DNA of 64,000 bases from Alphaproteobacteria bacterium. Lineage in GTDB: Bacteria; Pseudomonadota; Alphaproteobacteria; SHVR01. The notes beneath the pieces are model-generated. The model was given only the letters and a program-made list of their open reading frames with translations, was not told the DNA's origin and made no database searches. The stretch spans positions 1,096-65,095 of the forward strand of contig SHVR01000002.1 of assembly GCA_009694185.1 (NCBI GenBank), in the 5' to 3' direction. Shown one piece after another: positions 1 to 38,237 of this stretch (its first letter is position 1; the number at the start of each line of letters is the position of its first letter). Both the position numbers and the translations under genes were made by a program.

Positions 1-85
1 GCACTTGTTCCAGATAGCCAAGAAGCTCCGGCCCGGGCGAGGTGCCGGCGGGCCATTGATTGGCGATAAAGAGCCCGAACTTCAT
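1..85 (-). CDS. LLM-class (luciferase-like) oxidoreductase, third tandem paralog; only the 5' end is in the window
   Basis: Minus strand from ATG 85..83 reads MKFGLFIANQWPAGTSPGPELLGYLEQV. This is colinear with the N-termini of the two neighbouring paralogs (MKVGLYVATQWPEG..., MIVKVGLYLATQF...). A GGGAGGA Shine-Dalgarno lies at 92..98. Not in the ORF track because it runs off the window. Confidence 0.7.
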   Translation of the reverse strand, partial: MKFGLFIANQWPAGTSPGPELLGYLEQV

Positions 86-110
86 GCCCGTTCCTCCCTG
101 TATTTCAGTG

Positions 111-1112
111 TCAGAGTGTGGCGGCGATGCGGCCCATGCGCTCGATGCTTTTGAGCACCAGCGCCTGATCCATGCCTGGCCACTGCATCCGCAAGACGAG
201 ATGGTTCACGCCGAGCTGGTCGCGGTAGCGCTGGATTTCATCGCGCACAAATGCTTCGTCGCCGATCATGAAACGGTCCCGGGCAAAGCCCGGAAATTCC
301 TCAGCTAGGCGCCCGGCATGGGGGCCGACGCCATAATTACCCCATGCCGCGTAGGCTTGATATTTGTAGAGAAGCGGCCCCCGGACCTCATCGAGGGCCG
401 TGGCGTTGCTCGCCCCCACATAGGTCTCGCGGCAGAGCGGCATGTCCTGGACCGGCGGCCGTTTGGAGGCCGCCAGGCCTTGGCGATAGGCCGCCATCAG
501 CCGCACCAGATCGGCGCCCGACGGGCTGAAACTCATCAACCAGCCATCGCCGATCTCGCCCGCCCGCCGGACGGCGGGCTCGGCGCTGCCGCCGATCCAG
601 ATGGGAATACCATCCGGACGCACTGGCCGGAGACTGAGGCCCACATCGTCCAGGTGGAAATAACGGCCCTTGTGGCTCACCCGATCCTCGCGCCAGAGCC
701 GGCGCATCAGCTCGATCGATTCGACGAAGCGGCCGACGCGCTCTTTGATCGGCACGCCGGTCACGGCGAATTCCTCCTGGCGATAGCCGATGCCGACCCC
801 CAGCACATAGCGCCCGCCCGTCAGCCAGTCGAGGGTCGCCGCCTCTTCGGCGACCATGACCGGATTCATCATCGAGAGCAGCAGGATGGCGGGCCCCGCC
901 TCCATGCCCTCGGCTTCAGCGGCAAGCCGGGCGAGAAGCGGCGTTGGCTGGAACATCCGCATGCCCGGCCCCACCACATAATGATGCGCCGCCCAAAGCG
1001 ACTTGAAGCCGGCCGCACGGGCGCGGCGTACTTGTTCCAGGAGATTGCCAAGCTGCGGCCCGAGGTCGGTCCCCTCGGGCCACTGGGTTGCCACATAGAG
1101 GCCGACCTTCAT
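111..1112 (-). CDS. LLM-class flavin/F420-dependent oxidoreductase (luciferase-like monooxygenase family)
   Basis: 333-aa ORF with ATG 1112 preceded by GGGGAGAG. LLM-type blocks are present (GVGIGYRQEEF, IPIWIGGS). The C-terminus LRMQWPGMDQALVLKSIERMGRIAATL is almost identical to the adjacent paralog. F420 versus FMN specificity cannot be read from sequence by eye. Confidence 0.85.
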   Translation of the reverse strand: MKVGLYVATQWPEGTDLGPQLGNLLEQVRRARAAGFKSLWAAHHYVVGPGMRMFQPTPLLARLAAEAEGMEAGPAILLLSMMNPVMVAEEAATLDWLTGGRYVLGVGIGYRQEEFAVTGVPIKERVGRFVESIELMRRLWREDRVSHKGRYFHLDDVGLSLRPVRPDGIPIWIGGSAEPAVRRAGEIGDGWLMSFSPSGADLVRLMAAYRQGLAASKRPPVQDMPLCRETYVGASNATALDEVRGPLLYKYQAYAAWGNYGVGPHAGRLAEEFPGFARDRFMIGDEAFVRDEIQRYRDQLGVNHLVLRMQWPGMDQALVLKSIERMGRIAATL

Positions 1113-1136
1113 CGCGCTCTCCCCGCAAGTCCGCGT

Positions 1137-2141
1137 CTACAATCTGGCGACGATGCGGCCCAGCCGCTCGATGCTTTTCAACACCAGCGCCTGGTCGAGG
1201 CCGGGCCACTGCATGCGCATGATGAAATGTTTGACGCCGAGCCGGTCGCGATAGCGGGCCAGCTCGTCGGCGACCGCGCTCTCGTCGCCGATGATGAAAC
1301 GGTCCTGGCGGAACTGCTCGAAGGGCTGATCGAAGCGGTCCGCTTCACTCAATATTTTGTCCTGGCCCCAGGCGGCGTAGGCCCCGTATTTATATTGGAT
1401 CTGGGCACTACACTCCGCGACCGCGCTGGCGTTGCCGGCGCCAACGTAACATTCCCGGCAGAGCGGATATTCCGACGCGGGCGCCAACCCTGCGGCGGCT
1501 CGGGTCGCCCGATAGAAGGCGAGCTGCTCGCCGACGGCCGCGATCGTCGGATAGAAGGTAATCAGCCATTCATCGCCGAGTGTGGCGGCACGCTTGATGG
1601 CGGGCTCGACCACGGCCGCGATCCAAATGGGCGGTCCGCCCGGCCGCTTGGGCTTGAGGCTCAAGCCCAGATTTTCGAAGGCATAATATTTGCCCTTGTG
1701 GGTCACCCGGTCCTCGGTCCAGAACCGCCTGACGATGCCTAGACCCTCGTCGAGCCTACCGACCCGCTCCTTGAGCCGGCCACCCATCGCCGGAAATTCT
1801 TCCGGTCGATAGCCGATGCCGACACCAAGCACGAAGTTCCCGTCCGTGAACCAGTCGAGGGTCGCCGCCTCCTCCGCCACCAGCACGGGATTGAGCAGCG
1901 GAAAGACCAGGATGTTGGTACCAACCTGCATGCCCTTGGCCTCGCCCGAGAGGCGCGCCAGGAGTGGCATCGTCTGGAACATTTGCATCGGCGCCGTGAT
2001 GAAATGCTGCGCCGCCCAAAGCGAGGCGAAGCCGCTCGCCTGGGCGACGCGCACTTGCTCGATGAGATTGCCGAGCCGGGGACTGAGCGGCGTTTCGGGC
2101 GTGAACTGGGTCGCGAGATAAAGGCCGACTTTCACGATCAT
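1137..2141 (-). CDS. LLM-class flavin/F420-dependent oxidoreductase (paralog of 111..1112)
   Basis: 334-aa ORF with ATG 2141 preceded by GAAGGAG. Roughly half of positions are identical by eye to 111..1112 (e.g. LNPVLVAEEAATLDW, GVGIGYRPEEF, MRMQWPGLDQALVLKSIERLGRI). Confidence 0.85.
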   Translation of the reverse strand: MIVKVGLYLATQFTPETPLSPRLGNLIEQVRVAQASGFASLWAAQHFITAPMQMFQTMPLLARLSGEAKGMQVGTNILVFPLLNPVLVAEEAATLDWFTDGNFVLGVGIGYRPEEFPAMGGRLKERVGRLDEGLGIVRRFWTEDRVTHKGKYYAFENLGLSLKPKRPGGPPIWIAAVVEPAIKRAATLGDEWLITFYPTIAAVGEQLAFYRATRAAAGLAPASEYPLCRECYVGAGNASAVAECSAQIQYKYGAYAAWGQDKILSEADRFDQPFEQFRQDRFIIGDESAVADELARYRDRLGVKHFIMRMQWPGLDQALVLKSIERLGRIVARL

Positions 2142-2148
2142 CGCTCCT

Positions 2149-3159
2149 TCAGGTTTTTATTTCCGCCGCGTCATCGGTTCGCATGTAGCGCGCCTTCATG
2201 TGCTTGGCCATGAAATGGTCGAGCATGCGAATCGGCGCATGGCGGGCACCCCTCCCCCGGCAGGTTTCGAGGCAGCGGATCTCGGCGTCGAAATTCGGAT
2301 TGTGGAAGAAGACCGTGCTGAGGCGCGGTACCTGGGCATGGTCGCGCGGTGGATTAGCGACCCGGTGCAGGGTCGATATCCAGCGGTCGTTGGTCCAGCG
2401 CATCATCAGGTCGCCCAGATTGACGACGAAGGATCCCGGCTCCGGATGCACGTCGATCCAGCCGCCGTCGCGGCGTTTGACCTGAAGGTCGCCCGGCGTG
2501 TCGTCGCCACGCAGGATAGTGACCGTGCCGTAGTCGGTATGGGCACCCGCGCGGAGCTGGCCCGGCGCCGGCGGCTCCGGTTGCGGCGGATAGTGGATCA
2601 CCCGGAGAATGCTGAAATCCCGGTCGATCGCGCCGGCGAAATGGTCCGCCGGCAGATCGAGTGCCGTTGCCAACAACTCCATCAGGGAGCCGGCGAGGCC
2701 GCGCACGGCCCGATAATAGGCCTCCAAGCGAGTTTGAAGTGCCGCGGACCCCGCGGGCCAGAGGTTCGGCGCATAGAGATGATCGGCACCGAACCCGGCA
2801 TAAGAAGCGGGCGGGCGGGGATCGGCCGGGCCGATGGCGAAACTCTCCTGCAAGTCGGGCAGCGCCGCCTGGCCCATGGAGTAAGAGAGCGCCTGATCGG
2901 CGAGGCGATTATAGCCGCGGCTTACCTCCTCGGACGGCCGGGCGATGGCGAACTTCTCGGCGAGCGGCCGGGCAAAGAAGCCAAGCATCGCCCAGCGCGT
3001 CTCGGCAATCAACGTCTCGGGCACACCATGGCCGACGATGGTGAAGACGCCGGTTTCCCGGCAGGCGCGGTCGACCGCCGCCGCGACCGACCTTCGGGCG
3101 GCGGCGGAGCCCGCGATAAAGGGCGCCAGGTCGATGACGGGAATGGCACTCTCGTCCAT
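2149..3159 (-). CDS. 2-oxoglutarate/Fe(II)-dependent oxygenase (isopenicillin N synthase-like family)
   Basis: 336-aa ORF. The N-terminal IPVIDL... block is typical of the DIOX_N region. The HxD facial-triad motif is in GAHTDYGTVTIL, the distal His in STLHRV, and an Arg-x-Ser in PRLSTVFF. Confidence 0.85.
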   Translation of the reverse strand: MDESAIPVIDLAPFIAGSAAARRSVAAAVDRACRETGVFTIVGHGVPETLIAETRWAMLGFFARPLAEKFAIARPSEEVSRGYNRLADQALSYSMGQAALPDLQESFAIGPADPRPPASYAGFGADHLYAPNLWPAGSAALQTRLEAYYRAVRGLAGSLMELLATALDLPADHFAGAIDRDFSILRVIHYPPQPEPPAPGQLRAGAHTDYGTVTILRGDDTPGDLQVKRRDGGWIDVHPEPGSFVVNLGDLMMRWTNDRWISTLHRVANPPRDHAQVPRLSTVFFHNPNFDAEIRCLETCRGRGARHAPIRMLDHFMAKHMKARYMRTDDAAEIKT

Positions 3160-3162
3160 GGC

Positions 3163-4143
3163 TCAACCCCCACTCCGGGACGGCGCTCGATCGACCGCCA
3201 AGCGCGCCGCGAACTCTAGCACCGCGCGACCCAAGCGAACCCGATCGTCAAGGGTCGCCATCACCGTACCCGAGACATGCACCGCCATGCCTTCCGCCTC
3301 GATCGATAGTGCCAAGGCCGCGTCGCGCTCGTCCAGCACGAAGCCATCGACCAAGCCCCGATAATGGCGCGCGACACCAAGCGCACTCGTCTCGATGCCA
3401 AGTTCCGTCATCATCTTGGCGGTCGGCCCCTTGAGCGCCCGGCCGGCGACGATCGGCGAGACGGCGACGACCGGCACGCCCGCGTTTCGGATCGCCTGGC
3501 GGAGGCCCGGCACCGCCAGGATCGGATCGATGCTGATAAAGGGGTTGGAGGGGCCGATCAGTATCGCCGTCAGTCCCGCCTGCTCCAGCGCCTGAAGCGC
3601 CATCGGATTGGCCCGCGCCGTCTCGCGGCCGACGAAACGAAAACCGGTCACAGGCGGCACGGCGCGTTCGCGCACGAAATAGAGCTGGAACGGCAGTGGC
3701 CCGGCCGGTGTTTGAACCTCGGTCCGCAGCTTCTGGTCGGACATGGGCAGGACGCCCACTTTGACGCCGAGACGGGCCGCGAAAACGGCCGTCACCTCGG
3801 TCAAGGTCGCACCCGCCGCGAGCCGGCGGGTGCGCTCCACATGGGTCGCGAGGTCGTGGTCGCCCAAGCGAAACCAAGTCTCGCCACCCAACTCCGCCAT
3901 CGCTTCCATGAAGCGCCAACCCTCGTCCCGGCGGCCCCAGCCGGTCTCGGGATTGGCTTGGCCCGAGAGCGTGTAGAGGAGCGTGTCGAGATCGGGCGAG
4001 ATGGCAAGGCCCAGATGCTCGAAATCGTCGCCCGTATTGACGATCACGGTGAGCCGCTCCGGCGGCATCGCGTGGGCCAGGCCCAAGACCAGCTTGGCCC
4101 CGCCGACGCCGCCGCTGAGTGCGACGATGCGCCCGCCCATCAT
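3163..4143 (-). CDS. cofD: 2-phospho-L-lactate (or enolpyruvyl/phosphoglyceryl) transferase CofD/FbiA, F420 biosynthesis
   Basis: Track ORF 3163..4524 trimmed to ATG-ATG at 4143/4140 ([22 protein letters not shown]..., the glycine-rich CofD N-terminus), giving 326 aa. The discarded 127 codons are Arg/Gly/Pro shadow sequence lying inside cofE. The start overlaps the cofE stop (TGATG). Confidence 0.8.
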
Positions 4144-4922
4144 CAGCGGAACATGTCCTGCTCCTTGGGCCGCACCAGCTCGCGCGCCGTCCCGTCCTCG
4201 CCGCTCCGCGCCAAGCCGCGCACCAGGACCGCCGGGCAGCCCTCGTCGGCCTGGCCCATCAGCAGGCCGGCGGCGGCGGCGACCTCGTCGGCGACGCCCA
4301 CCTGGGTCACCATCAGCGAGCGGCCGAAGAGATCGGGCTGGCCGCGCAAATCCACCAGCGGCTTGAGGCCGGCAACGCCGATGGCGATCCCGACCGTGCC
4401 CTGGCGCCAGGCGCGCCCGACACTGTCGGCGATGATGATACCCACATCGGCCTGGGTGCGCTCGCCAAGCGCGGCACGCAGTCGCGCCGAGGAGGCATCG
4501 GGATCGACGGGCAGCAGCAGGCAATGGGCGTCGGCCTCGGCACCTTCGATCGGCTCGATGTTGGAATGGTCGATGCCGGCATTGGCGAGCACGAAGCCGA
4601 GCTTGTGGGCGACGACGATGATGCCCGGCCGGCGGCGCACCACTTCGGCCGATTCACCGAGCACCAGCTCGACGAAACGCGGGTCCTTACCCACTTCCTT
4701 GGCGAGTGCCACGGCCGCCGGCGAGGGCACCACATGGCGGACATCCACATAGCGGCCCTCGGACTTGGAGACGATTTTCTGGGCCAGCACCAGCACGTCG
4801 CCGGTGGCGAGCGTGAGCCCGCACCGTTTCAGCGCCGCGAGGATGAGGCTCGCCAGATCGTCGCCCGGCCGCACCAGCGGAATGCCCGGCAGGGCGTGAA
4901 GTGTCAGACGGTCGATCCGCAC
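4143..4922 (-). CDS. cofE: Coenzyme F420-0:L-glutamate ligase CofE (short, single-domain form)
   Basis: 259-aa ORF with GTG 4922 preceded by GGGAGAG. Blocks [25 protein letters not shown] and [14 protein letters not shown] resemble CofE and the FbiB N-terminal domain. There is no C-terminal nitroreductase-like FbiB extension. Confidence 0.8.
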
Positions 4923-4939
4923 GCCTGCTCTCCCTCGGC

Positions 4940-5605
4940 CTAGGCTGTCGGTTCGCCGGTGATGCAGAGCCCAGCGCCGTCGATCTTGTAGCGGCGGTTG
5001 ATGGCGATCAGCACCGAGGTCATGGCCTCCGCCACCACGGAATTCGCGAGCACGCCCGCATGCCAGCCCTTGAGGCCGAGCGCGGCGACCAGGACGATCA
5101 CCGCCTCGCGCGCCGCCGCATCGTCGCCCGCCACCAGCACGTCGGATTGGATGATGATGTCCTGTTGCAGCTTGTGCGCCGCGACCGTCTGCAGCGCCGA
5201 GACGACCCGGACCGACTGGCCGAGAAAGGCCTGGGCCGCGACGGCGACCGAGCCGCCAGGCGGCAATTGCACCGTGCTGACCTTGGGCGGCATGAGCGGC
5301 ACGGTCGCGTCCACCAGAATCTTGCCGGCGAGCGCCGCCTTGATGGTCTCAAGCGTCGGTTGATGGTTGGCGTAGGGCACGGTGAGGACGGAAATGTCGG
5401 CGGCGGTGGCCGCCGCCGCGTTTTCCATGCCGCGCACGGCCTTGCCGGTCCGCGCCTTCAGTTCGGCCGCCGCGATGGCCGCGCGGTCGGCAACCCGGGA
5501 GCCGACAATGACCGGATACCCGGCGCGCGCCCAGCGCCAGGCGAGCCCGGACCCAAGGTCGCCGGTACCGCCGATGACGGCGACGGTCGGAAGTGAGGCG
5601 TTCAT
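4940..5605 (-). CDS. npdG: NADPH-dependent F420 reductase (Fno/NpdG family)
   Basis: Track ORF 4940..5971 trimmed to ATG 5605, which has a GGAG SD 8 nt upstream. The N-terminus is MNASLPTVAVIGGTGDLGSGLAWRWARAGYPVIVGSR (Rossmann GxGxxG followed by an NADP-type Ser-Arg). The 221-aa size and layout are typical of NpdG. Confidence 0.75.
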   Translation of the reverse strand: MNASLPTVAVIGGTGDLGSGLAWRWARAGYPVIVGSRVADRAAIAAAELKARTGKAVRGMENAAAATAADISVLTVPYANHQPTLETIKAALAGKILVDATVPLMPPKVSTVQLPPGGSVAVAAQAFLGQSVRVVSALQTVAAHKLQQDIIIQSDVLVAGDDAAAREAVIVLVAALGLKGWHAGVLANSVVAEAMTSVLIAINRRYKIDGAGLCITGEPTA

Positions 5606-5618
5606 CGCATACTCCGTT

Positions 5619-7139
5619 TCATGCAAGCCCGTAATCGAAGATGCCGGTGCCATCCGCTTTGGCGGGCAAGGCAGCGGCAGGCGGCAGGATGGGGTTGAGG
5701 GCGCGCAGGCCCGCCGCATCAAGGTCGGCGAGCCGCCGAGCGAGGCCGAGGACACGCTGGCACTCCGGCTCCGCGAGCGGCGACAGGGCGTTGAACTTCG
5801 CCACATGGTCCGCAAGGCCCCAAGGCCGCTTGCCATTGGGATGGGCATGGGCCACCGCCAACTCACCCGCCACCACCCGGCCATCGTCGAGGCGAATTTC
5901 CATGCGGCCGCCAAAGGCGCGCATCGCCGGATCGGCGGCATGGTAGCGGGCATTCCAGCCCGCATCGCCAAGCGTGCGGACCTTGTGCCAGAGCGCCACG
6001 GTCGAGGGCCGGCGCGCGCGCGCCGGCGCGTAGCTCGTCTCGTGGTGCCACTCGCCGTCTTCGAGCGCCACGGCGACGATATACATCAGGGAATGATCCA
6101 GGGTTTCCCGGCTGGCTTCCGGGTCGAGCTTCTGGGGATCGTTGGCGCCCGTGCCGATGACCTTGTGGCTGTGATCGCTGGTGTGTATCACCACTTCGGC
6201 GATGCGTTCGAGCGGCAGTCCCGGGCGCAATTCGAAGGCGAGGTCGATCATCGCCTGGGAATGGTATTCGGCCGAATGGGCCTTGGCATAGGTTTCCATG
6301 ATGCCGCGCGGCGCCTCGCCCGGCGAAGGCAGGGCGACGGCATAGCGGGCGTCCGGCCCCGCGAGCATCCAGGCGATGACCGAATCCTCGCCCTCATAGA
6401 TCGGGCTTGGCGCCGCCTCGCCGCGCATGGCGCGGTCCAAGGATTCGATGGCAAGCTTGCCGGCAAAGCCCGGCACGCTTGCCTTCCACGAGCTGATCTC
6501 GCCCTTGCGGGACTGGCGCGTCGAAAAGGCGAGATGCACGGCGAGATTGACCGCCTGATAGACGACCGGCGCCTTGAGGCCGAGGAGCGCGCCCAAGCCC
6601 GCCACCATGGCCGGCGCCAGATGCGCCACATGGTCTTTTTTCTGGGCATGCAGGCTGATCGCCTTGACCAGCGCCACCTGCACCTCATAGGCGGTGGCAA
6701 TCGCCCGGGTGAGCGCCTTGCCACCTTGTCCCGTCTGCTGGGCAACCGCCAGCAGGGGGGCGATGCAATCGGCCGGGTGCGAATAGTCGGCCGCGAGGAA
6801 GGTGTCGTTGAAATCGAGCTCGCGGACCGCCGTGCCATTGGCCCAGGCGGCCCATTCGGCATGCACGGTGACGGTCTCGGAGAGGCCCAACAGCAAGGCG
6901 CCGCCCGGCCTCGGATGGGCGAGCGCCATGGCGCGCGCCGTGCGAACGGGGTGCCGGCCGAGGGTCGGCAATGCCACCGCCAGGCTGTCGATCACGCGCG
7001 CCGCCACCAGCGCCGCCACGTCGGCGTCGGGCGTCGGCACGTTCGCTGCGAATTGGGCAATGTGCCAGGCAAGCTGACGCTCGCGCGGGAGGCGCGCCTG
7101 GGAGGCATGCACATGCACATCGAACCGGTCCATAGCCAA
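5619..7139 (-). CDS. MmgE/PrpD family protein (2-methylcitrate dehydratase-like)
   Basis: 506-aa ORF with PrpD-family length and blocks recognised by eye (AWANGTAVRELDFNDTF, GANDPQKLDPEASRETLDHSLMYIVAVAL). No prpC or acnD is nearby, so the specific substrate is left open. Confidence 0.8.
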   Translation of the reverse strand: MAMDRFDVHVHASQARLPRERQLAWHIAQFAANVPTPDADVAALVAARVIDSLAVALPTLGRHPVRTARAMALAHPRPGGALLLGLSETVTVHAEWAAWANGTAVRELDFNDTFLAADYSHPADCIAPLLAVAQQTGQGGKALTRAIATAYEVQVALVKAISLHAQKKDHVAHLAPAMVAGLGALLGLKAPVVYQAVNLAVHLAFSTRQSRKGEISSWKASVPGFAGKLAIESLDRAMRGEAAPSPIYEGEDSVIAWMLAGPDARYAVALPSPGEAPRGIMETYAKAHSAEYHSQAMIDLAFELRPGLPLERIAEVVIHTSDHSHKVIGTGANDPQKLDPEASRETLDHSLMYIVAVALEDGEWHHETSYAPARARRPSTVALWHKVRTLGDAGWNARYHAADPAMRAFGGRMEIRLDDGRVVAGELAVAHAHPNGKRPWGLADHVAKFNALSPLAEPECQRVLGLARRLADLDAAGLRALNPILPPAAALPAKADGTGIFDYGLA

Positions 7140-7141
7140 AC

Positions 7142-8068
7142 TCAGTCGCCGCCCTGGGCGCGGATGTCGTCCGGGACCGCGCTTCTGGCAACCGAGGCGT
7201 CGAGCGCCTCGTATTCATGATAGCCGATGGTCTCGTAGAGCTCGGCCCGGGTCTGCATGCGGTCGAGCAGGCCCTTGGCCGTCCCCTCGGCCGCCAGTGT
7301 CGCGTACAGCTCGGTCATGGCCTTGGCCGAAATGCGCAGCGACGAGACCGGCCAGATCAACATCTTATAGCCGAAGGATTCGAACTGCTTGGCCGTGTAG
7401 TAGGGCGTGCGGCCAAACTCGGTCATGTTGGCGAGAAGCGGCACGCCAACCGCCTTGGAAAACGTGCGGAACATGTCCTCGTTAACGAGCGCCTCGGGGA
7501 AGATGGCGTCGGCGCCGGCCTGGAGATAGAGGCGGGCGCGGGCGATGCCGGCATCGAGCCCTTCCGAGGCCACCGCGTCGGTGCGCGCGATGATGCGCAG
7601 ATGCGTGCGCGCCCGGCGCGCGGCGGCGATCTTGGCCGCCATGTCGCTCGGGGATGCCAGCTTCTTGTCGTTCAGATGGCCGCATTTCTTCGGCAGAATC
7701 TGATCCTCGATCTGGACGGCGGCGGCACCCGCCGCTTCCAGCTCGCGCACCAGGCGCATGACGTTGAGGGCTTCGCCATAGCCCGTGTCGCCATCCACCA
7801 GGATCGGCAGGTCGGTCGCCCGGAAGATCATGCGCGTGAAGAAGCAGAGCTCCTCGATGGTGATCATGCCAAGGTCCGGAAGGCCCATGCTGGCGGTGAT
7901 CGCGGCGCCCGAAATGTAGAGCGCCTCGAAGCCCGCCCGCTTGGCCAAGAGCCCCGCCATGGCGTTATGCGCCCCCGGCATGCGCAGAATACCCGGCCGC
8001 TGCCAGAGCGCCTCTATCCGGTCGCCCGGCGGCGTCGCGTCACGCCTGGTATCGGTCAGCCAAACCAT
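7142..8068 (-). CDS. Isocitrate lyase/PEP mutase superfamily enzyme (methylisocitrate lyase / carboxyvinyl-carboxyphosphonate phosphorylmutase-like)
   Basis: Track ORF 7142..8287 trimmed to ATG 8068 (MVWLTDTRRD...), giving 308 aa. Superfamily motifs ILVDGDTGYG and QIEDQILPKKCGHL are present. The stop lies 2 nt before the PrpD-like start. Confidence 0.8.
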   Translation of the reverse strand: MVWLTDTRRDATPPGDRIEALWQRPGILRMPGAHNAMAGLLAKRAGFEALYISGAAITASMGLPDLGMITIEELCFFTRMIFRATDLPILVDGDTGYGEALNVMRLVRELEAAGAAAVQIEDQILPKKCGHLNDKKLASPSDMAAKIAAARRARTHLRIIARTDAVASEGLDAGIARARLYLQAGADAIFPEALVNEDMFRTFSKAVGVPLLANMTEFGRTPYYTAKQFESFGYKMLIWPVSSLRISAKAMTELYATLAAEGTAKGLLDRMQTRAELYETIGYHEYEALDASVARSAVPDDIRAQGGD

Positions 8069-8174
8069 GTCCGTTCCCCATCCCACCGCCCTATCGCAAA
8101 GCGGCAGTGAACCATTGTTTGCAGGCGGCGTCACGGCCGCCGCATAATAGACGGAGGCAACCAAGGAACGGCCG

Positions 8175-9164
8175 ATGTATACCCAGGGCCTGAGTGGGCC
8201 GGTTGACCAGCCAGACCAGGGACACGACCCCGAACGCGAGGCCCGGTTCCAAGCGCGCATCGATGCCGAGGAGCGGATCGAGCCCAACGACTGGATGCCC
8301 GAGGGCTATCGCCGCACCCTCATTCGCCAGATCGCCCAGCACGCCCATTCCGAGATCGTGGGCATGCTGCCCGAGGGCAACTGGATCACCCGCGCCCCCT
8401 CGCTTCGCCGCAAGGCGGCCCTCCTCGCCAAGGTCCAGGACGAGGCGGGGCATGGCCTCTATCTCTATGCCGCGGCCGAAACCCTCGACATCTCGCGCGA
8501 GGAGCTGGTCGACCAGTTGCTGGCGGGCACGGCCAAATATTCCTCGATCTTCAACTATCCGGCCCTCACCTGGGCCGATATCGGCACCATCGGCTGGCTC
8601 GTGGACGGGGCCGCGATCATGAACCAGATCCCGCTCTGCCGCTGCAGCTACGGCCCCTATGCCAGGGCGATGATCCGCATCTGCAAGGAAGAGAGCTTCC
8701 ACCAGCGCCAGGGCTTCGAGATCATGTTGACGCTCGCCCGCGGCACGGTGGCGCAGCAGGCTATGGCCCAGGACGCACTCGATCGCTGGTGGTGGCCGTC
8801 GCTGATGATGTTCGGGCCGCCCGACAGCGAGAGCCAGCATTCCGACCGCTCCATGCGCTGGCGCATCAAGCGGTTCACCAACGACGCGCTGCGCCAGAAG
8901 TTCGTCGACGCGACCGTGCCCCAGTCGCAATTCCTTGGCCTTACCATCCCCGACCCCGCCCTCCACCATGACCCCAAGAGCGGCCATTGGAACTTCGGGC
9001 CGATCGACTGGCGGGAGTTCCGCCGGGTGATCGCGGGCGATGGGCCGTGCAATCGCGACCGCCTCAGAGCCCGGCGGGCGGCCCATGCCGCCGGCCGGTG
9101 GGTGCGCGAGGCGGCACTCGCCCATGCGGCCAAACGCCGGGCCAGGGCGCAAGCCGCCGAATAA
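8175..9164 (+). CDS. paaA: 1,2-phenylacetyl-CoA epoxidase subunit A
   Basis: 329-aa ORF. It is a ferritin-like di-iron protein with QDEAGHGLY and [11 protein letters not shown] (E..H motifs). It is followed by paaBCDE in canonical order. Confidence 0.9.
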
Positions 9165-9177
9165 GGAGAAGGCCATC

Positions 9178-9465
9178 ATGACCGAGGCCAAATGGCCGCT
9201 CTTCGAAGTGTTCATCCGCTCGCGCACTGGCCTTGCCCATCGCCATGTGGGCTCGGTTCATGCGGTCGACGCCGAGATGGCGTTGCAGAATGCCCGCGAC
9301 GTCTACACCAGGCGCGGCGAGGGGCTCTCGATCTGGGTGGTGCCGGCAAGTTCGATTACCGCCTCCGATCCAGCCGACAAGGAGATGCTGTTCGAGCCGA
9401 CCGCTTCGAAGATCTACCGGCACCCGACGTTCTACGAAGTGCCGGACGAGGTCGGCCATATGTGA
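9178..9465 (+). CDS. paaB: 1,2-phenylacetyl-CoA epoxidase subunit B
   Basis: Track ORF 9040..9465 trimmed to ATG 9178 (MTEAKWPLFEVFIRSR...YRHPTFY), giving 95 aa, the typical PaaB size. It lies 13 nt after the paaA stop. Confidence 0.9.
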   Translation: MTEAKWPLFEVFIRSRTGLAHRHVGSVHAVDAEMALQNARDVYTRRGEGLSIWVVPASSITASDPADKEMLFEPTASKIYRHPTFYEVPDEVGHM

Positions 9466-9475
9466 GGTGCGTGGC

Positions 9476-10228
9476 ATGACGGTGCCGCTGTTCGACTATG
9501 TGCTGCGCCTGGCCGACAACGCCCTGGTGCTGGGCCATCGCCTCTCGGAATGGTGCGGCCACGGGCCGGTTCTGGAGGAAGACCTAGCGCTCGCCAACAT
9601 GGCCCTCGACCTGATCGGCCAGTCGCGGAGCCTCTATGACTATGCGGGCGAGGTCGGGGGGCGGGGCCACGACGAGGACGCGCTCGCGTATCTGCGCGAC
9701 GTGGCCTCCTACCGCAATGTGCTGCTGGTCGAGCAGCCCAATGGCGATTTCGCCTGCACCATGGCGCGCCAGTTCTTCTATTCGGCGTTCATGCACCCCT
9801 ATTGGCAAGCCATGGCCGCCTCCAGCGATCCAGCGCTCGCCGCCATCGCCGAGAAAAGCGTCAAGGAAGTCGCCTATCACGTCCGCCACACGAGCGAGTG
9901 GGCGATCCGCCTCGGCGACGGCACCGAGGAGAGCCATCGCCGCATGCAGGCGGCGGTCGACGAGCTTTGGCCTTATACGGGCGAACTTTTCGAGGCCGAC
10001 GCCATCGAAGCGGCGCTGATCGAGGCCGGCATCGCCACCGACCCGCGCCCGCTCGAAGGCGCCTGGCGGGCGACGGTCGCGAACGTGCTCAAGACCGCCA
10101 CACTGACCTTGCCCGCGACCGGCTGGATGCAGACCGGCGGGCGCGTGGGCCGGCACTCGGAGCATCTCGGCCATCTCCTCGCCGATTTGCAATATATGCA
10201 GAGGGCCTATCCGGGGGCCGCCTGGTGA
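9476..10228 (+). CDS. paaC: 1,2-phenylacetyl-CoA epoxidase subunit C
   Basis: Track ORF 9233..10228 trimmed to ATG 9476 (MTVPLFDYVLRLADNALVLGHRLSEW...), giving 250 aa. Position and sequence fit PaaC. Confidence 0.85.
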   Translation: MTVPLFDYVLRLADNALVLGHRLSEWCGHGPVLEEDLALANMALDLIGQSRSLYDYAGEVGGRGHDEDALAYLRDVASYRNVLLVEQPNGDFACTMARQFFYSAFMHPYWQAMAASSDPALAAIAEKSVKEVAYHVRHTSEWAIRLGDGTEESHRRMQAAVDELWPYTGELFEADAIEAALIEAGIATDPRPLEGAWRATVANVLKTATLTLPATGWMQTGGRVGRHSEHLGHLLADLQYMQRAYPGAAW

Positions 10229-10725
10229 CCCAAACCGCCAGCGAAGTCGATCGAGCCAACCGCGCGTGGGACGTGGCGGCCCAGGTGCTCGACCCGGAAA
10301 TTCCGGTGCTAACCATCGCCGATCTGGGCGTGTTGCGCGGCGTCCAAATGGTGGACGGCGTGGTCGAGGTGACCATCACGCCGACCTACTCCGGCTGCCC
10401 GGCCATGGCGGCTATCCGCCTCGACCTCATGGCGGCGCTCGATGCCGCGGGGTTGGGCGAGGCACGCATTCGCATGGTCCTCGCGCCCGCTTGGACGACC
10501 GACTGGATCAGCGCGGCGGGCAAGGCGAAGTTGCGTGCCTATGGCATCGCACCACCCCCGCGCCCCGCCGGCAAGGCGGCGCTGTTCAGCATGGATACGG
10601 TCGCCTGTCCGCGTTGCGGCTCGGCGGAGACCGAACGCCTCGCCGAATTCGGCTCGACGCCCTGCAAGGCGCTCTGGCGTTGCACACGCTGCCGCGAGCC
10701 CTTCGACTATTTCAAATGCCTGTGA
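10225..10725 (+). CDS. paaD: Phenylacetate-CoA oxygenase subunit PaaD (DUF59/MIP18-like domain plus C-terminal zinc ribbon)
   Basis: In-frame GTG at 10225 overlaps the paaC stop (GTGA). There is a DUF59-like core (VLDPEIPVLTIADLGVLRGV) and a C-terminal CPRCGS...CTRCREPFDYFK ribbon. Length 166 aa. The start choice is an inference. Confidence 0.8.
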   Translation: MTQTASEVDRANRAWDVAAQVLDPEIPVLTIADLGVLRGVQMVDGVVEVTITPTYSGCPAMAAIRLDLMAALDAAGLGEARIRMVLAPAWTTDWISAAGKAKLRAYGIAPPPRPAGKAALFSMDTVACPRCGSAETERLAEFGSTPCKALWRCTRCREPFDYFKCL

Positions 10726-11801
10726 GCCAGCCCCGTTTCCACCGGCTCACCGTCGCCGACCGGCGACAGGAAACGGCGGACACGGTGTCCATCGCCTTGC
10801 ATGTGCCGGCGAAGCTCGCCAAGGCCTACCGCTACGCCCCCGGCCAGTATCTGACGCTCCGCGCGAACCTGGCGGACGAAGAGGTACGCCGTCCCTACTC
10901 GCTTTCGAGCGCTCCGGGCGAAGGCGAATGGCGGGTGGCCATCAAGCGCGTCGAGGGCGGCGCCTTCTCCAACTTCGCGCACGACATGCTCTGGCCGGGC
11001 GAGGCCGTCGATGTCATGACGCCCGCCGGCCGGTTCACCACGCCCCTCGACGTGCAAGCGGCCCGGACCTTCCTTGCCGTCGCGGCGGGCTCGGGCATTA
11101 CACCGGTCATGTCGATCTTGAAAGCCGTGCTGGCGGAGGAGCCCCGGAGCCGCTTCACGCTCCTCTATGGCAACCGCTCGGCGCCCAGCATCATTTTCAA
11201 GGCCACCCTCGACGATCTGAAGGACCGGCATGTGAGCCGGCTCGCCGTGCACCACATCCTCTCGCGCGAGCGGCCGGACATTCCGCTGCTGCACGGTCAC
11301 CTGGACAGCCCGAAGATCCGGCTTCTGTTGCGCACCATGGAAGCCGCTGGCCACATCGACCATGCGTTTCTGTGTGGGCCGGCGGGTTTGATCGACCAGG
11401 CACGGGCAACGCTCATCGAGTTGGGCGTGGCGCCGGCGCGCATCCATGCCGAACTCTTCACGCCGGGCGCGCGGGCTGCCGCAAGGCCCGAACCCGGCCT
11501 GACGACGCCGGCGCCGCTTGCCGCCAGCGCGGCCGACATCCGCATCGACGGCACGCTCCATCGTGTCGACGTCGCCGCCAGCGAGACGATCATCGAGGCG
11601 GCGAGCCGGGCCGGCCTCCAGCTTCCCTTCGCCTGCAAGGGCGGCATGTGCTGCACCTGCCGGGCGCGGCTCGTCGCCGGCACGGTCGACATGGCGACCA
11701 ATTATTCGCTGGAGCCCTGGGAACTGGCGGCGGGCTTCGTGCTCACCTGCCAGTCGCGGCCAACCTCGCCCTCGGTCGAACTCGACTACGACCAGGTGTG
11801 A
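10716..11801 (+). CDS. paaE: Phenylacetate-CoA oxygenase/reductase subunit PaaE (FNR-like plus plant-type 2Fe-2S)
   Basis: ATG 10716 overlaps the paaD 3' end. It carries the FAD motif RPYSLSS, the NAD(P) motif AAGSGITP, and a C-terminal CKGGMCCTCRARL ferredoxin motif. Length 361 aa. Confidence 0.85.
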   Translation: MPVSQPRFHRLTVADRRQETADTVSIALHVPAKLAKAYRYAPGQYLTLRANLADEEVRRPYSLSSAPGEGEWRVAIKRVEGGAFSNFAHDMLWPGEAVDVMTPAGRFTTPLDVQAARTFLAVAAGSGITPVMSILKAVLAEEPRSRFTLLYGNRSAPSIIFKATLDDLKDRHVSRLAVHHILSRERPDIPLLHGHLDSPKIRLLLRTMEAAGHIDHAFLCGPAGLIDQARATLIELGVAPARIHAELFTPGARAAARPEPGLTTPAPLAASAADIRIDGTLHRVDVAASETIIEAASRAGLQLPFACKGGMCCTCRARLVAGTVDMATNYSLEPWELAAGFVLTCQSRPTSPSVELDYDQV

Positions 11802-11810
11802 GGGCGAGCT

Positions 11811-13124
11811 TCAATCCTTTGGGCGGCGGTCGACGACCCGGCGCGCCTTGCCCTCCGAGCGCGCGATCTCGCCGGGTGCTCCGACCGTGACGGTGGTCGT
11901 GAGGCCGATCCGGTCCTTGATGGATTTGGCGAGGCTAGCCGAGGCCGTCCGGCGAACCTGGTCCAAGTCGGCGCCGGGCCGGGCCTCCACCAGGATTTCG
12001 ACGCTGTCGAGCCGCCCCGTTCGCGTCAGCACGATCTGGTAGTGACCCGAAAGAGCGTCGACGGCGAACATCAACTCCTCGATCTGGCTCGGGAACAGAT
12101 TGACGCCGCGCACGATCAGCATGTCGTCGCTGCGGCCCGCGATCTTCGCCATGCGGCGCATGGTCCTGGCCGTGCCCGGCAGCAGGCGCGAGAGATCGCG
12201 GGTGCGATAGCGGATGACCGGCATCGCCTCCTTGGTCAGCGAGGTGAACACCAGCTCGCCCGCCTCGCCCGCCGCCAGCACTTGGCCGGTCACGGGGTCG
12301 ACGATCTCCGGATAGAAATGGTCCTCCCAGATATGCAATCCGTCCTTGGTCTCGACGCATTCGCTGGCGACACCCGGGCCGATCACTTCGGAGAGGCCAT
12401 AAATGTCGACGGCGTGCATATCGAAGGCGTCCTCGATCTCGGCGCGCATGGCGTTGGTCCAGGGCTCGGCCCCGAAAATGCCGACCCGGAGCGACGATTT
12501 GCGGGGATCGATCCCCTGGCGCACAAACTCGTCCAGGATGGCCAGCATGTAGGAGGGGGTCACCATGATGATCTGGGGCTTGAGGTCCTGGATCAATTGG
12601 ACCTGACGCTCGGTCATGCCGCCCGAGACGGGAATAACCGTGCAGCCCAAGCGCTCCGCCCCATAGTGCGCGCCGAGGCCGCCGGTAAAGAGGCCGTAGC
12701 CATAGGCCACATGCACCCGGTCGCCGGATCGCCCGCCGGCCGCGCGGATCGAGCGGGCGACCACGTTGGCCCAGATGTCGAGGTCGTGGCGCGTGTAGCC
12801 CACGACGGTCGCCTTGCCCGTCGTGCCGGAAGAGGCGTGGATGCGGGCGATCCGCTCGGCCGGTACGGCGAACATGCCGGTTGGATAATTGTCGCGCAGA
12901 TCGGCCTTGGTCGTGAAGGGAAACCGCCTGAGGTCCTCCAAGGTCTTGCAATCGCCGGGGTGGACGCCCTGGGCGTCGAATTTCGCCTTGTAGGCCGCAA
13001 CGTTGGCGTAGGCATGGTGGAGCGTGGCCTGGAGCCGCCCGAGTTGGAGGGCGGTAATCTCGTCCCTGGAGGCGATTTCGATGGGTTCGATATCATGCCA
13101 AGCGGGTGCCGCGCCGAGCCGCAT
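11811..13124 (-). CDS. paaK: Phenylacetate-CoA ligase
   Basis: 437-aa ORF with ATG 13124 preceded by AAGGGGA. PaaK-type N-terminus (LQLGRLQATLHHAYANV..YKAKFD), the adenylation motif SSGTTGK, and FPFTTKADLRDNYP are present. Confidence 0.9.
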   Translation of the reverse strand: MRLGAAPAWHDIEPIEIASRDEITALQLGRLQATLHHAYANVAAYKAKFDAQGVHPGDCKTLEDLRRFPFTTKADLRDNYPTGMFAVPAERIARIHASSGTTGKATVVGYTRHDLDIWANVVARSIRAAGGRSGDRVHVAYGYGLFTGGLGAHYGAERLGCTVIPVSGGMTERQVQLIQDLKPQIIMVTPSYMLAILDEFVRQGIDPRKSSLRVGIFGAEPWTNAMRAEIEDAFDMHAVDIYGLSEVIGPGVASECVETKDGLHIWEDHFYPEIVDPVTGQVLAAGEAGELVFTSLTKEAMPVIRYRTRDLSRLLPGTARTMRRMAKIAGRSDDMLIVRGVNLFPSQIEELMFAVDALSGHYQIVLTRTGRLDSVEILVEARPGADLDQVRRTASASLAKSIKDRIGLTTTVTVGAPGEIARSEGKARRVVDRRPKD

Positions 13125-13138
13125 CGGTCAATTCCCCT

Positions 13139-13585
13139 TCAGGCGGTCGCGGGTGGCCCGAGACCGGGCACCAAGTCACCCGCGATCCGGCGCGAATGGC
13201 CACGGAATAGGGCGATCAACGTCCCATCGCCCCGCGTTACCCGAACGTCGGTGACGGCGGAGCGGCCGTGGCGCGACTGCTCGATGGCCTCGGCCCGCAA
13301 TATGTCGCCGAGGCGCGCGGGCGCGATATAGGTAATGGCGCAGTGCTGGGCGACCGCGCGGTGATTGTGGGAGTTGCAGGCGAAGCCGAAGGCCGAGTCC
13401 GCGAGCGCGAAGATGAAGCCGCCATGGCATTGACCGTGGCCGTTGGTCATGCCTTCCCCAACCGTGAACTCCACGTCGGCGCGGCCGGCGGCAACGGCAA
13501 TGAGGCGCATGCCCATGCCCCGGCTCGCCTTGTCCTCGGCCCACATGACGTCGGCCGCCGCCCGGGCGAGGGCGTCGGGCTCCAT
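13139..13585 (-). CDS. paaI: Hydroxyphenylacetyl-CoA thioesterase PaaI (hotdog fold)
   Basis: Track ORF 13139..13942 trimmed to ATG 13585 (MEPDALARAAADVMWAEDKASRGMGM...), giving 148 aa. The hotdog block GHGQCHGGFIFALADSAFGFACN is present. The start overlaps the upstream stop (TGATG). Confidence 0.75.
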   Translation of the reverse strand: MEPDALARAAADVMWAEDKASRGMGMRLIAVAAGRADVEFTVGEGMTNGHGQCHGGFIFALADSAFGFACNSHNHRAVAQHCAITYIAPARLGDILRAEAIEQSRHGRSAVTDVRVTRGDGTLIALFRGHSRRIAGDLVPGLGPPATA

Positions 13586-14994
13586 CAATCGCCGGTGCCG
13601 ATGCGCTCCACCAGTTGATGGACGCTCGGGATGAAACCGTTGGCGTAGAAGGGGTCGTTGGCGAAGCGATAGGCATTGTGGCCGGCGAACATGAGCTGCT
13701 GGTCGATATGATTGCCATGGCCGATCGACTGCAGGGTCTTCTGGATGCAGAACGAGCGCGGATCGGCCTTCTTGCCCGTGGTGCCGGCCTCGTTCTGGGC
13801 CCAATTGCTGAAGCTGCAGGCGCTGAGACAGCCCATGCAGGCCACCTGGTCGGCGCGGATTTCGTTGGCGCGCGGCGGCGTCACGAAAATCATTGTCGAG
13901 TCCGGCGTGCGCATGGTCTCGGTAAACCCGGACGCGACCCAACCTTCAGCCCTGGCCTTGTCCGCCTGGGTGAGATAGATGGCGCGACCGCGTGGCCCCA
14001 CCCGGAAGAGCTGGTCGTGCTGGCCGACGATTTCGGCCGTGAACGCCACTTGGCGCTCCGAGCGCGCCTGCAATTCCTTGAGGAAGAGATTGTGGACGGC
14101 GGACGAATAGAAGCCGGTCGGACTGAAGTGATTGAGATAGACGTCGCCCTCCGCCAGGGTGACCAGGCGGTGCTTCCATTCTTCCGAGATCGGGCTCTCC
14201 AGGGTCAAAAGCGGCCTGGTGCCGAACTGGAAGGCGATCGGCCCGAGCTCCGGGTTGCCCAGCCAATGCGCCCATTCGCGCAGATACCAGACGCCGCCCG
14301 CCATGAAGATGGGGGTCGCCGGCAGCCCCATTTCCGTCATCACGGCGCGCAATTCGCGCACCCTGGGATAGGGGTCCTCGGGATGGTTCGGGTCCTCGCT
14401 GTTGGACAGACCATTGTGGCCGCCCGCCAACCACGGGTCTTCGTACACCACGCCGCCAAGCCACTCCTTGTGCTTGTGGTAGGCACGCTTCCAGAGCGCC
14501 CGGAAGGCTCTCGCCGACGAGACGATCGGGTAATAATGGATGCCGTAGCTGGCGGCGATCTCGGCGATGCGATAGGGCATTCCAGCACCGCAGGTGACGC
14601 CATGGATCAGCCCCTTGGCGCCATCGAGTGCCCCGTGCAGCACGCGCTCCGCCCCGGCCATTTCCCACAGCACATTCATATGGATGCGGCCCTTGCCGCC
14701 GGCCCGCTCATAGGCGACGCGGGCCTGATGAATGGCGCCGCGAATGGCGTGCGCGAGGAGTTCCTCGTGCCGTTCGCGCCGCGTGCGGCCGAAATAGTCC
14801 TGTGGGATGAGGGCGCCCCAATCGTCGAAGGAATCGGCATTGACCCCGGAGAAGGTGCCGACCCCGCCGGCCGCCGCCCAAGCGCCCGCGCTCTCGCCAT
14901 TGGAGATCGATATGCCCTTGCCACCCTCGACGAGGGGCAACACGGCACGACCAGAAATCACCAACGGCTCAACGCTGATCACAGCACGCCTCAC
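13585..14994 (-). CDS. Nitronate monooxygenase / 2-nitropropane dioxygenase-like FMN oxidoreductase (long ~465-aa form)
   Basis: 469-aa ORF. A TIM-barrel NMO-like pattern is recognised by eye (VEGGKGISISNG, GVTCGAGMP, PIFMAGGV). The first codon at 14994 is GTG. An alternative GTG at 14982 has a better GAGG SD. Confidence 0.7.
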   Translation of the reverse strand: MRRAVISVEPLVISGRAVLPLVEGGKGISISNGESAGAWAAAGGVGTFSGVNADSFDDWGALIPQDYFGRTRRERHEELLAHAIRGAIHQARVAYERAGGKGRIHMNVLWEMAGAERVLHGALDGAKGLIHGVTCGAGMPYRIAEIAASYGIHYYPIVSSARAFRALWKRAYHKHKEWLGGVVYEDPWLAGGHNGLSNSEDPNHPEDPYPRVRELRAVMTEMGLPATPIFMAGGVWYLREWAHWLGNPELGPIAFQFGTRPLLTLESPISEEWKHRLVTLAEGDVYLNHFSPTGFYSSAVHNLFLKELQARSERQVAFTAEIVGQHDQLFRVGPRGRAIYLTQADKARAEGWVASGFTETMRTPDSTMIFVTPPRANEIRADQVACMGCLSACSFSNWAQNEAGTTGKKADPRSFCIQKTLQSIGHGNHIDQQLMFAGHNAYRFANDPFYANGFIPSVHQLVERIGTGD

Positions 14995-37270: not shown

Positions 37271-38230
37271 TCAAGCGCGGCCGGCCCCGTAATAGAGCAT
37301 GACCGTGTGCTTGGCCTCGCCGAAGAACAGCCAGCGCTCGACCGCCACACCGAGTGCCGCCGACAGTGCCGCCAACACGGCGAGTGCCAGGCCCGCACCG
37401 CCTGCGCCCAGGGAATTGGCCCAAAGCACGCCGAGCGAGAGGGCAAAGGGCATGGCGAATCCGGCCAGTTCCGCGATTCGCCTGAGCTTGGCCGCATGCT
37501 TGCGAGCAAGCTGGAAGCCCATCTCCTTCAAGAGGTAATTCTCTTCCGTGTGGGGTGCATCGAGGAGGCGAACGGCGCCGATCCGGCCGAGGCCCGTGGC
37601 GCTTGCCGGCGTGCTGGCGGCCGATGTGGTGTCGATGAACCGCCAATAGCCCCGCTTGGCGGCCCAACCGGCCGCAACCGCCAAAATGGCAACGCCGATG
37701 GCGGACCCGCCTTGCAAGGCGAAAAGATGCAGCAGAATATTGAGCAGCAGCGCCCCGGTCATGAGGGCGAGCAGCAGATAGCCCGGCACGACCCAGGCAT
37801 TGCACCAGCGCTGCACGGGCTTGAGAGACGCGTAGATCATGCCCGTGCAATAGACGGTGGCTGCCGAAGCGACACTGGCGACGAGGCCGAACATCGCCCA
37901 GATGCCGTCGTTACGACCGAGGAACACCCAGCCGATCGCGAACAAGCCGGCCGGCACATAGGCCGCGAGTGCCATCACCCCCTCGCGCGAGAGCCACGAT
38001 GTCCGCCATTGCGAGAGGGCGCGCCAAGCGCGCTCGGGATGGCCGAGATGGGCGGTGGATGCCAATAGGCCGGCGCTCACAAGGCCAAGGGCAAGTGCCA
38101 ACGCCAGTAGGCCGAAACCGAACTCCGCCGGCAACAGACCGAAGGCCGCGAACAGGCCGAGCCACACTAGGAGGCCGTAACCGGCGCCGGTGAGAGTGGT
38201 GAAGATGATGACGGACGCGGCGGGGTGCAT
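37271..38230 (-). CDS. soeC: DmsC/NrfD-like membrane anchor subunit; SoeC-like (putative sulfite dehydrogenase, quinone)
   Basis: Track ORF 37271..38485 trimmed to ATG 38230, 7 nt after the FeS-subunit stop, giving 319 aa. The protein is highly hydrophobic with about 8 predicted TM stretches by eye. The Soe assignment comes from architecture (see findings), not from a search. Confidence 0.6.
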   Translation of the reverse strand: MHPAASVIIFTTLTGAGYGLLVWLGLFAAFGLLPAEFGFGLLALALALGLVSAGLLASTAHLGHPERAWRALSQWRTSWLSREGVMALAAYVPAGLFAIGWVFLGRNDGIWAMFGLVASVASAATVYCTGMIYASLKPVQRWCNAWVVPGYLLLALMTGALLLNILLHLFALQGGSAIGVAILAVAAGWAAKRGYWRFIDTTSAASTPASATGLGRIGAVRLLDAPHTEENYLLKEMGFQLARKHAAKLRRIAELAGFAMPFALSLGVLWANSLGAGGAGLALAVLAALSAALGVAVERWLFFGEAKHTVMLYYGAGRA

Positions 38231-38237
38231 CGGCCGC

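Follow-up and report, generated by a model that had tools for sequence, protein, structure and literature searches.

In the gene clusters that serve the cofactor F420 in bacteria, genes for Fno, Fgd, FDOR and LLHT proteins figure as accessories (PMC8498797, Fig. 10 legend), and clusters of the type fno/fgd-cofE-cofD-cofC-fbiC, in many cases with LLHT or FDOR genes, are shown for Paracoccus denitrificans and Oligotropha carboxidovorans (Ney et al., 2017; PMC8498797, Fig. 10). The Outlook of the same article acknowledges the reason for F420 in Proteobacteria as an open question. Clusters of this kind are also found on rhizobial plasmids. On pSymA of Sinorhizobium meliloti the order npdG-(cofE)-cofD-cofC-fbiC is followed by coenzyme A (CoA)-transferase genes and a gene for a luciferase-like oxidoreductase (LLM) of the family TIGR03619, and on a plasmid of Agrobacterium rubi cofD-cofC-fbiC and cofE-npdG are interspersed with aminotransferase genes. 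Here we describe a locus in a 64,000-nucleotide stretch of chromosomal DNA (the window; contig SHVR01000002.1, positions 1,096 to 65,095, assembly GCA_009694185.1) which carries the NCBI label 'MAG: Alphaproteobacteria bacterium' (MAG, metagenome-assembled genome). Positions 1-8068 of the window hold nine consecutive minus-strand genes in the order prpB, prpD, npdG, cofE, cofD, a 2-oxoglutarate (2OG)/Fe(II) oxygenase gene, LLM1, LLM2 and LLM3. We lean towards reading them as a mosaic operon assembled from three evolutionarily separable modules, a methylcitrate pair, a late-F420 core and an oxygenase/LLM tail.

The nine genes are packed closely. Their places and the lengths of their junctions, recomputed here, are those given in an earlier reading made from the letters of the window (the sequence-only reading), and the stretch from the oxygenase gene to LLM3 recurs at 100% identity in an independent assembly (L001), which also supplies the complete LLM3. 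Two starts need amendment. The gap between prpB and prpD is 2 nt if prpD starts with TTG at 7139 and 8 nt if it starts with ATG at 7133, as public gene calls have it (504 aa), and cofE and cofD overlap by 1 nt in TGATG, which puts the start of cofD at 4143 (326 aa) and not at 4146. The remaining junctions measure 13 nt (prpD/npdG), 17 nt (npdG/cofE), 3 nt (cofD/oxygenase), 7 nt (oxygenase/LLM1), 24 nt (LLM1/LLM2) and 25 nt (LLM2/LLM3); the gene order in the headline of the sequence-only reading was loose in that the oxygenase gene actually stands between cofD and the three LLM genes. GGAG-like Shine-Dalgarno sequences lie upstream of npdG, cofE, LLM1, LLM2 and LLM3, weaker ones at prpB, prpD, cofD and the oxygenase gene. 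Terminator-like hairpins occur in the operon at chance level (5 vs 4.8 expected), two of them on the coding strand and both of these inside genes. Given gaps of -1 to 25 nt, a single strand and terminators at chance level, the nine genes are most likely a single transcription unit. The intergenic region at 8069..8174 (106 nt, no strand assigned), common to the operon and to the divergent paaABCDE genes (paaA start 8175), is its presumed promoter region, although a motif scan of the operon region detects no sigma-70-like consensus promoter there; a search of the operon region against Rfam finds no riboswitch or other RNA leader. Horizontal transfer was considered as origin of the modules and rejected, the GC content at third codon positions of the nine genes (0.80-0.89) lying inside the range of the host, with 0.81-0.88 for core genes of the window, and thus giving no signal.

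What follows LLM3 is shown by a single relative (L086), in which an oxygenase gene and three LLM genes with 82-88% identity to those of the window (87% for the oxygenase) are succeeded by convergent genes. Since these genes are convergent, the operon of the window, judged by analogy, would end at LLM3, and cofC-fbiC would not lie directly past the window edge, the place to which the sequence-only reading had pointed for them. The public 99.8-kb contig and the Logan contig (L001:3317-3385) both end about 70 nt past the LLM3 stop, and the break of two independent assemblies at this point points to a repeat, or a region that varies between strains, close behind the operon.

The three central genes were named correctly by the sequence-only reading, as their products all score above the cut-offs of the respective equivalog models. 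The NADPH-dependent F420 reductase NpdG/Fno (4940..5605, minus strand, 221 aa, Pfam F420_oxidored) reaches 171.4 bits on TIGR01915 (cut-off 149.8), the F420-0:gamma-glutamyl ligase CofE (4143..4922, minus strand, 259 aa, Pfam F420_ligase) 277.1 bits on TIGR01916 (cut-off 180.65), and the 2-phospho-L-lactate transferase CofD (3163..4143, minus strand, its ATG overlapping the cofE stop) 303.8 bits on TIGR01819 (cut-off 257.45) with a match over residues 7-310 of 327. CofE is of the stand-alone type with F420_ligase (residues 14-236) as its sole domain and without the C-terminal nitroreductase domain of FbiB-type proteins. In the proposed late-F420 module CofD would couple the deazaflavin FO to an activated phospho-linker, CofE would add the gamma-glutamates, and NpdG would keep F420 reduced with hydride from NADPH. 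As the sequence-only reading had remarked, neither cofC nor an FO synthase gene (fbiC/cofGH) is present in the 64-kb window, according to tblastn (best E 0.23) and Pfam domain lists, so that the cluster is incomplete, and neither gene follows LLM3 in L086. Because cofC and fbiC are missing and the L086 operon stops after LLM3, the operon alone cannot make F420, and the module is not self-contained as that reading had supposed; CofC would have to be supplied from elsewhere, and likewise FO, whether made by FbiC or taken up.

How ordinary this core is becomes apparent in comparison with 160 CofD-centred loci, drawn from the matches listed in GTDB species genomes and in JGI metagenomes (80 each), among which identity to CofD is at best 64-65%. 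The cofE gene is located directly upstream of cofD in 112 of the 124 loci with room for it (90%), the gene preceding cofE is npdG in 37 and an Fgd-like LLM gene in 22 of 88, cofC directly follows cofD in 102 of 126 (81%), and fbiC is at most 2.5 kb away in 36 of 78, the identities of cofC and fbiC having been checked by Pfam. The npdG-cofE-cofD unit is the standard conserved 'late F420' core of Proteobacteria, portable and part of an already known cluster type. With such clusters the window shares this gene order, the tight spacing, the stand-alone CofE, LLM genes in or beside the cluster and the embedding among lineage-specific catabolic genes. It differs from them by the lack of cofC and fbiC in the operon and the 64 kb, by prpB and prpD at the head, and by an oxygenase of the isopenicillin-N-synthase (IPNS) family together with three paralogous LLMs. 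Among the 52 loci that span 15 kb or more an LLM gene occurs in 33 (63%), prpB in one, and prpD and the oxygenase gene in none, and nine of these loci are without both cofC and fbiC within 10 kb. The one prpB (L057; 65% identical) is located 7 kb upstream on the opposite strand amid cupin, Zn-ADH and fatty-acid-hydroxylase genes and was treated as coincidence. The sequence-only reading had not recognised the gene combination as a described one; a head of prpB(-prpD) and a tail of oxygenase and LLM triplet are indeed unusual, but the layout of finishing, recharging and LLM genes is already known from the clusters in Fig. 10 of PMC8498797.

The pair at the head of the operon resembles genes of the methylcitrate cycle. 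The first gene, prpB (7142..8068, minus strand), encodes a methylisocitrate lyase of 308 aa that scores 410.8 bits on the equivalog model TIGR02317 (cut-off 354.4), has the KKCGH catalytic motif from residue 127 on, and is 61% identical over the full length to PrpB of Paracoccus yeei and 61-68% identical to the products of Rhodobacterales plasmid genes annotated prpB, the annotation of plasmid homologues being uniformly methylisocitrate lyase. The second, prpD (5619..7139, minus strand; 506 aa with the TTG start at 7139, 504 aa with the ATG at 7133), encodes a homologue of the high-GC-type 2-methylcitrate dehydratase with Pfam domains MmgE_PrpD_N and MmgE_PrpD_C. Its 662 bits on the high-GC-type model NF042438 stay under the cut-off of 950, so that it is not formally a member of that family, and it is 57% identical to P. 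yeei PrpD over the full length. Homologues of PrpD at 55-60% identity are located in prpD-prpC-prpB operons, and the PGAP name is also there just 'MmgE/PrpD family'. The order prpD-prpC-prpB was verified in P. yeei and P. aminophilus, and in P. yeei a thioesterase-prpD-prpC-prpB operon adjoins the gene of a short-chain acyl-CoA regulator. By these likenesses the window PrpD probably works as PrpD, and PrpB and PrpD appear as ordinary methylcitrate-cycle orthologues and not as the exotic organic-acid enzymes that the sequence-only reading had seen in them. The two genes differ from the Rhodobacterales plasmid operons in that prpC, regulator and thioesterase are missing, the order is prpB-prpD and F420 genes are fused to them; with no homologue of prpC in the 64-kb window at E<=1e-3, they do not amount to a methylcitrate-cycle operon. 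Among plasmids from cultured bacteria Thermomicrobium roseum is the only case with prpB and F420 genes on one replicon, at a distance of about 620 kb, and a plasmid-borne parallel to the prpB link was rejected. Literature on a link between F420 and the methylcitrate cycle consisted of mycobacterial papers naming each separately.

Closer relatives came from a search with LLM2 followed by retrieval of the gene context. Through CofD no relative of the whole cluster with the prpBD or oxygenase parts emerged among the matches listed, and L172 was met by way of the LLM search only. This locus (L172:1574-7725, also L173; MAG GCA_964625225.1) has the order prpB-npdG-cofE-cofD-LLM-cofC-fbiC with a gap of 5 nt between prpB and npdG. 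Its proteins are 78% (PrpB), 66% (NpdG), 66% (CofE), 65% (CofD) and 65% (LLM, to LLM2) identical to those of the window. In a tree of the concatenated NpdG, CofE and CofD sequences, which is star-like, L172 is the best-supported partner of the window with 49.5% of 200 bootstraps. The two loci agree in prpB directly before npdG, in an F420 core of 65-66% identity and in an LLM of the LLM2 clade. L172 differs in that it has neither prpD nor the oxygenase gene, carries one LLM gene, retains cofC and fbiC, and has a tcuA-like flavoprotein gene as divergent upstream neighbour and not paaA. Neighbourhood conservation, which the sequence-only reading had proposed as a check, is found on two levels: the npdG-cofE-cofD core is common in the 160 loci, and the prpB-npdG junction recurs in L172. 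As L172 is the best-supported partner in the core tree, the shared prpB-npdG junction is most simply explained by inheritance from a common ancestor and retention despite a changed flanking gene. The arrangement in L172 also marks two features as traits of the lineage, the tie to prpB and the presence of an LLM of this subfamily beside cofC. A search for FbiC of the same MAG as the window, with the N-terminus of the L172 FbiC as query, gave no candidate among the 120 matches listed and is uninformative. A third lineage is represented by L087:8635-12808 (MAG GCA_046296375.1) with LLM-cofC-fbiC, where the LLM stop and the cofC start share 4 nt; this LLM has 62% identity with LLM2 and 75% with the LLM of L172. 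On the same contig, about 6 kb off and on the other strand, a short MmgE_PrpD_C gene, an acyl-CoA dehydrogenase gene and a CoA-transferase gene are found.

The mosaic reading can be spelled out as follows. The first module would consist of prpB and prpD, methylcitrate-cycle orthologues without prpC, the second of the late-F420 core, and the third of the IPNS-family oxygenase and three anciently diverged LLM paralogues, which most likely spend the F420H2 that the second module provides. The older arrangement of the lineage, prpB-npdG-cofE-cofD-LLM-cofC-fbiC, would be the one kept in L172. In the lineage of the window prpD would then have been inserted beside prpB, cofC-fbiC displaced, and the oxygenase gene and two further LLM genes recruited. 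The insertion of prpD beside prpB would fit with prpB acting as a methylcitrate gene. The new aspect of the locus is its lineage-specific architecture, in which a conserved link to prpB is combined with an additional prpD, the absence of cofC-fbiC, an oxygenase gene and a triplicated LLM of a subfamily that elsewhere stands beside cofC. One observation sits uneasily with a pure mosaic: the prpB-npdG junction persists over about 35% protein divergence though the flanking gene differs, which hints at a functional tie beyond mere juxtaposition.

The tail of the operon begins with the oxygenase gene (2149..3159, minus strand), the product of which (336 aa) belongs to the IPNS family with matches to Pfam DIOX_N (PF14226) and 2OG-FeII_Oxy (PF03171) at 83 and 85 bits. 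The iron triad H207-x-D209 ... H265 and the 2OG motif R279-x-S281 are intact, and among solved structures 9ovh and 6jyv are its best relatives. Leaving aside the sequences of the same species cluster and the L086 fragment (87%), no homologue exceeds 60% identity. As cluster marker the oxygenase was rejected, since three homologue contexts examined (L002-L005) are unrelated and yield no functional lead.

The oxygenase is followed by LLM1 (1137..2141, minus strand, 334 aa, Pfam Bac_luciferase), LLM2 (111..1112, minus strand, 333 aa) and LLM3, the last gene of the operon, of which the window holds the 5' end (1..85, minus strand, ATG at 85) and L001:2325-3317 the complete 330 aa. The three are 50-61% identical to each other, and since each is conserved at 82-88% in L086, they are old paralogues. 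In the LLM tree LLM2 and LLM3 group with the cluster-embedded LLMs of L172 and L087, and LLM1 groups with LLMs that adjoin CN_hydrolase or MmgE/PrpD-family genes. Of the latter kind are L088:9148-11002, where an LLM1-like gene (74% identical) stands next to a CN_hydrolase gene, and L174:4390-14385, L175 and L176, which have an operon of the order rpiR-amidohydrolase-CN_hydrolase-MmgE/PrpD-family-aminotransferase-LLM-ABC transporter with an LLM 59-60% identical to LLM1; this operon looks like a catabolic route for a nitrogen-containing organic acid. Other LLM arrays occur near F420 genes. In two alphaproteobacterial MAGs (L006:16236-20435 and L014:15205-19888) npdG-cofE-cofD-cofC-fbiC is followed at a distance of a few kb by four tandem LLM genes on the other strand, with products 33-36% identical to the window LLMs, and an alpha/beta hydrolase gene directly precedes npdG. 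A Hyphomicrobiaceae chromosome (L057:7990-17000) has fgd-cofE-cofD-cofC-fbiC-LLM-LLM-FDOR(Pyridox_ox_2) in one direction, and its Fgd passes the Fgd equivalog model with 505 bits.

Do the three LLMs use F420, as the sequence-only reading had suggested for them as candidate consumers? We consider it probable, as a prediction from gene context and model ranking. For all three, and also for the relatives in L087, L088 and L057, the best NCBIfam model is TIGR03619 (F420_Rv2161c), a predicted F420-dependent family of the Rv2161c type from Actinobacteria, which leads by about 57 bits for LLM1-3. To our knowledge, no substrate is known for this family. Members of the subfamily stand inside F420 gene clusters in three independent lineages (the window with L086, L172 and L087), and NpdG is the only reductase of the operon, no flavin mononucleotide (FMN) reductase being encoded among its genes. 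Searched against 72,556 plasmids at E<1e-30, LLM2 finds matches only in haloarchaea and one Streptomyces, taxa known to make F420. The same proteins could be FMN-dependent two-component monooxygenases that are accidental neighbours of F420 genes, and several results speak for that and against the use of F420. The TIGR03619 scores of 132.3 (LLM1), 153.8 (LLM2) and 147.5 bits (LLM3) are all under the cut-off of 166.9, the PGAP name is just 'LLM class flavin-dependent oxidoreductase', and identity to the bona fide TIGR03619 LLM of pSymA is about 32%. The best solved sequence relative, 8k74, is an LLM of Klebsiella, an organism without F420, albeit nearly tied with the F420-dependent fHMAD. The AlphaFold model of LLM2 (pLDDT 93) has TM-scores of 0.84-0.86 to FMN-type LLMs (2i7g, 7bip, luciferase), which rank first, vs 0.75-0.79 to Mer, FGD and Adf, so that the attempt to read the cofactor from solved structures and AlphaFold/Foldseek comparison ended ambiguously, leaning to FMN-type folds. 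Moreover, no F420 genes are in view around the homologues in L088 and L174-176. Accidental neighbourhood nevertheless seems unlikely to us in view of the three lineages, the NpdG-only operon, the plasmid matches and the fact that F420-type models beat FMN-type models by more than 55 bits. A different doubt concerns the F420 core itself, which might be a remnant that lost cofC and fbiC and makes no F420, or one that builds it from imported FO and another source of the activated linker. The absence of both genes from the 64-kb window and from downstream of the operon in L086 is in line with such a loss, as is the like absence within 10 kb in the nine long comparison loci. But npdG, cofE and cofD are intact genes of full length that exceed their equivalog cut-offs, split architectures with cofC-fbiC elsewhere exist in the clade (LLM-cofC-fbiC of L087), and CofD is not known to have a substrate in the absence of CofC; decay or salvage is in our estimate decidedly unlikely.

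Two further explanations give the neighbours of the core a common task. It could be imagined that oxygenase and F420H2-dependent LLMs yield a propionyl-CoA-derived or alkyl-tricarboxylate intermediate which PrpD dehydrates and PrpB cleaves, with the F420 genes supplying the cofactor. The 2-25 nt junctions, which imply co-expression of the nine genes, the prpB-npdG adjacency conserved in L172, the MmgE/PrpD-family, CN_hydrolase and aminotransferase genes that share an operon with an LLM of the same subfamily in L174-176, and the rhizobial F420 clusters likewise interleaved with catabolic genes all speak for one integrated pathway. We regard it as doubtful all the same: PrpB and PrpD resemble plain methylcitrate orthologues, the prpB of L172 occurs without prpD, oxygenase and extra LLMs, prpD and the oxygenase gene are absent from all 160 other F420 loci, the MmgE/PrpD protein of L174 shares just about 27% identity with the bona fide PrpD of P. 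yeei, and no substrate can be proposed. Alternatively, the LLM of the LLM2 clade, conceivably together with PrpB, might serve F420 biosynthesis by supplying or finishing the lactyl linker (reduction of dehydro-F420-0 or of phosphoenolpyruvate) in place of a nitroreductase-type reductase. The placing of an LLM gene after cofD and ahead of cofC in L172/L173, and immediately ahead of cofC-fbiC in L087, the 75% identity of these two LLMs within one clade with LLM2 and LLM3, and the single-domain CofE speak for such a role. The origin of 2-phospho-L-lactate and the lactyl linker of Gram-negatives are left open in section 25 of PMC8498797 and in PMC8764529, and in our reading of the CofC substrate data in PMC8764529 it looks unsettled how the lactyl linker is supplied where a dehydro-F420 reductase domain is lacking. 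We give this role little credence, as most proteobacterial F420 operons have no LLM gene among the biosynthetic genes, the window LLMs stand apart from any cofC, homologues of 55-74% identity are also met away from F420 genes, and PrpB retains the lyase signature and equivalog score. Smaller still is our confidence in its strong form, in which the LLM2-clade LLM, perhaps with the operon-leading PrpB, is an unrecognised step of F420 biosynthesis that makes the lactyl linker in this lineage. If true, it would explain classical F420 in Gram-negatives with stand-alone CofE and no nitroreductase-type FbiE, and in the operon of the window the enzyme family concerned would have branched out into three paralogues.

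The surroundings of the operon are those of a chromosome. The proteins from LLM3 to the oxygenase are deposited as MSO75422 to MSO75425, and beyond paaABCDE the window holds paaK, pnp-rpsO-truB-rbfA-infB-nusA, molybdopterin oxidoreductase genes, glnD, mutS and a pst operon. The phenylacetate cluster (8175-14994) is divergent from prpB, with paaA-paaE on the plus strand from 8175 to about 11800 and, on the minus strand, paaK (11811-13124), a 4HBT thioesterase gene (about 13139-13585) and the gene of an NMO-like protein (13585-14994). The molybdopterin oxidoreductase (37271-41860, minus strand) comprises a catalytic subunit (38969-41860), a 4Fe-4S protein (38238-38972) and a DmsC-type anchor (37271-38230), and a universal stress protein gene adjoins the upstream end of its genes. 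In the pst operon (57475-61826) the permeases are unusually long, 870 aa for the PstC-like (57475-60087) and 580 aa for the PstA-like protein (60084-61826), each with BPD_transp_1 as its only Pfam match.

The value of the locus lies mainly in testable hypotheses on F420 in Proteobacteria. It offers, together with L172, two leads that can be cloned, an LLM subfamily that stands within F420 clusters in three lineages and a conserved co-operonic tie of the F420 charging genes with PrpB. Should either link prove functional, F420 in Alphaproteobacteria would gain a first physiological context; otherwise the locus still illustrates how a portable npdG-cofE-cofD core moves about among metabolic genes specific to a lineage.

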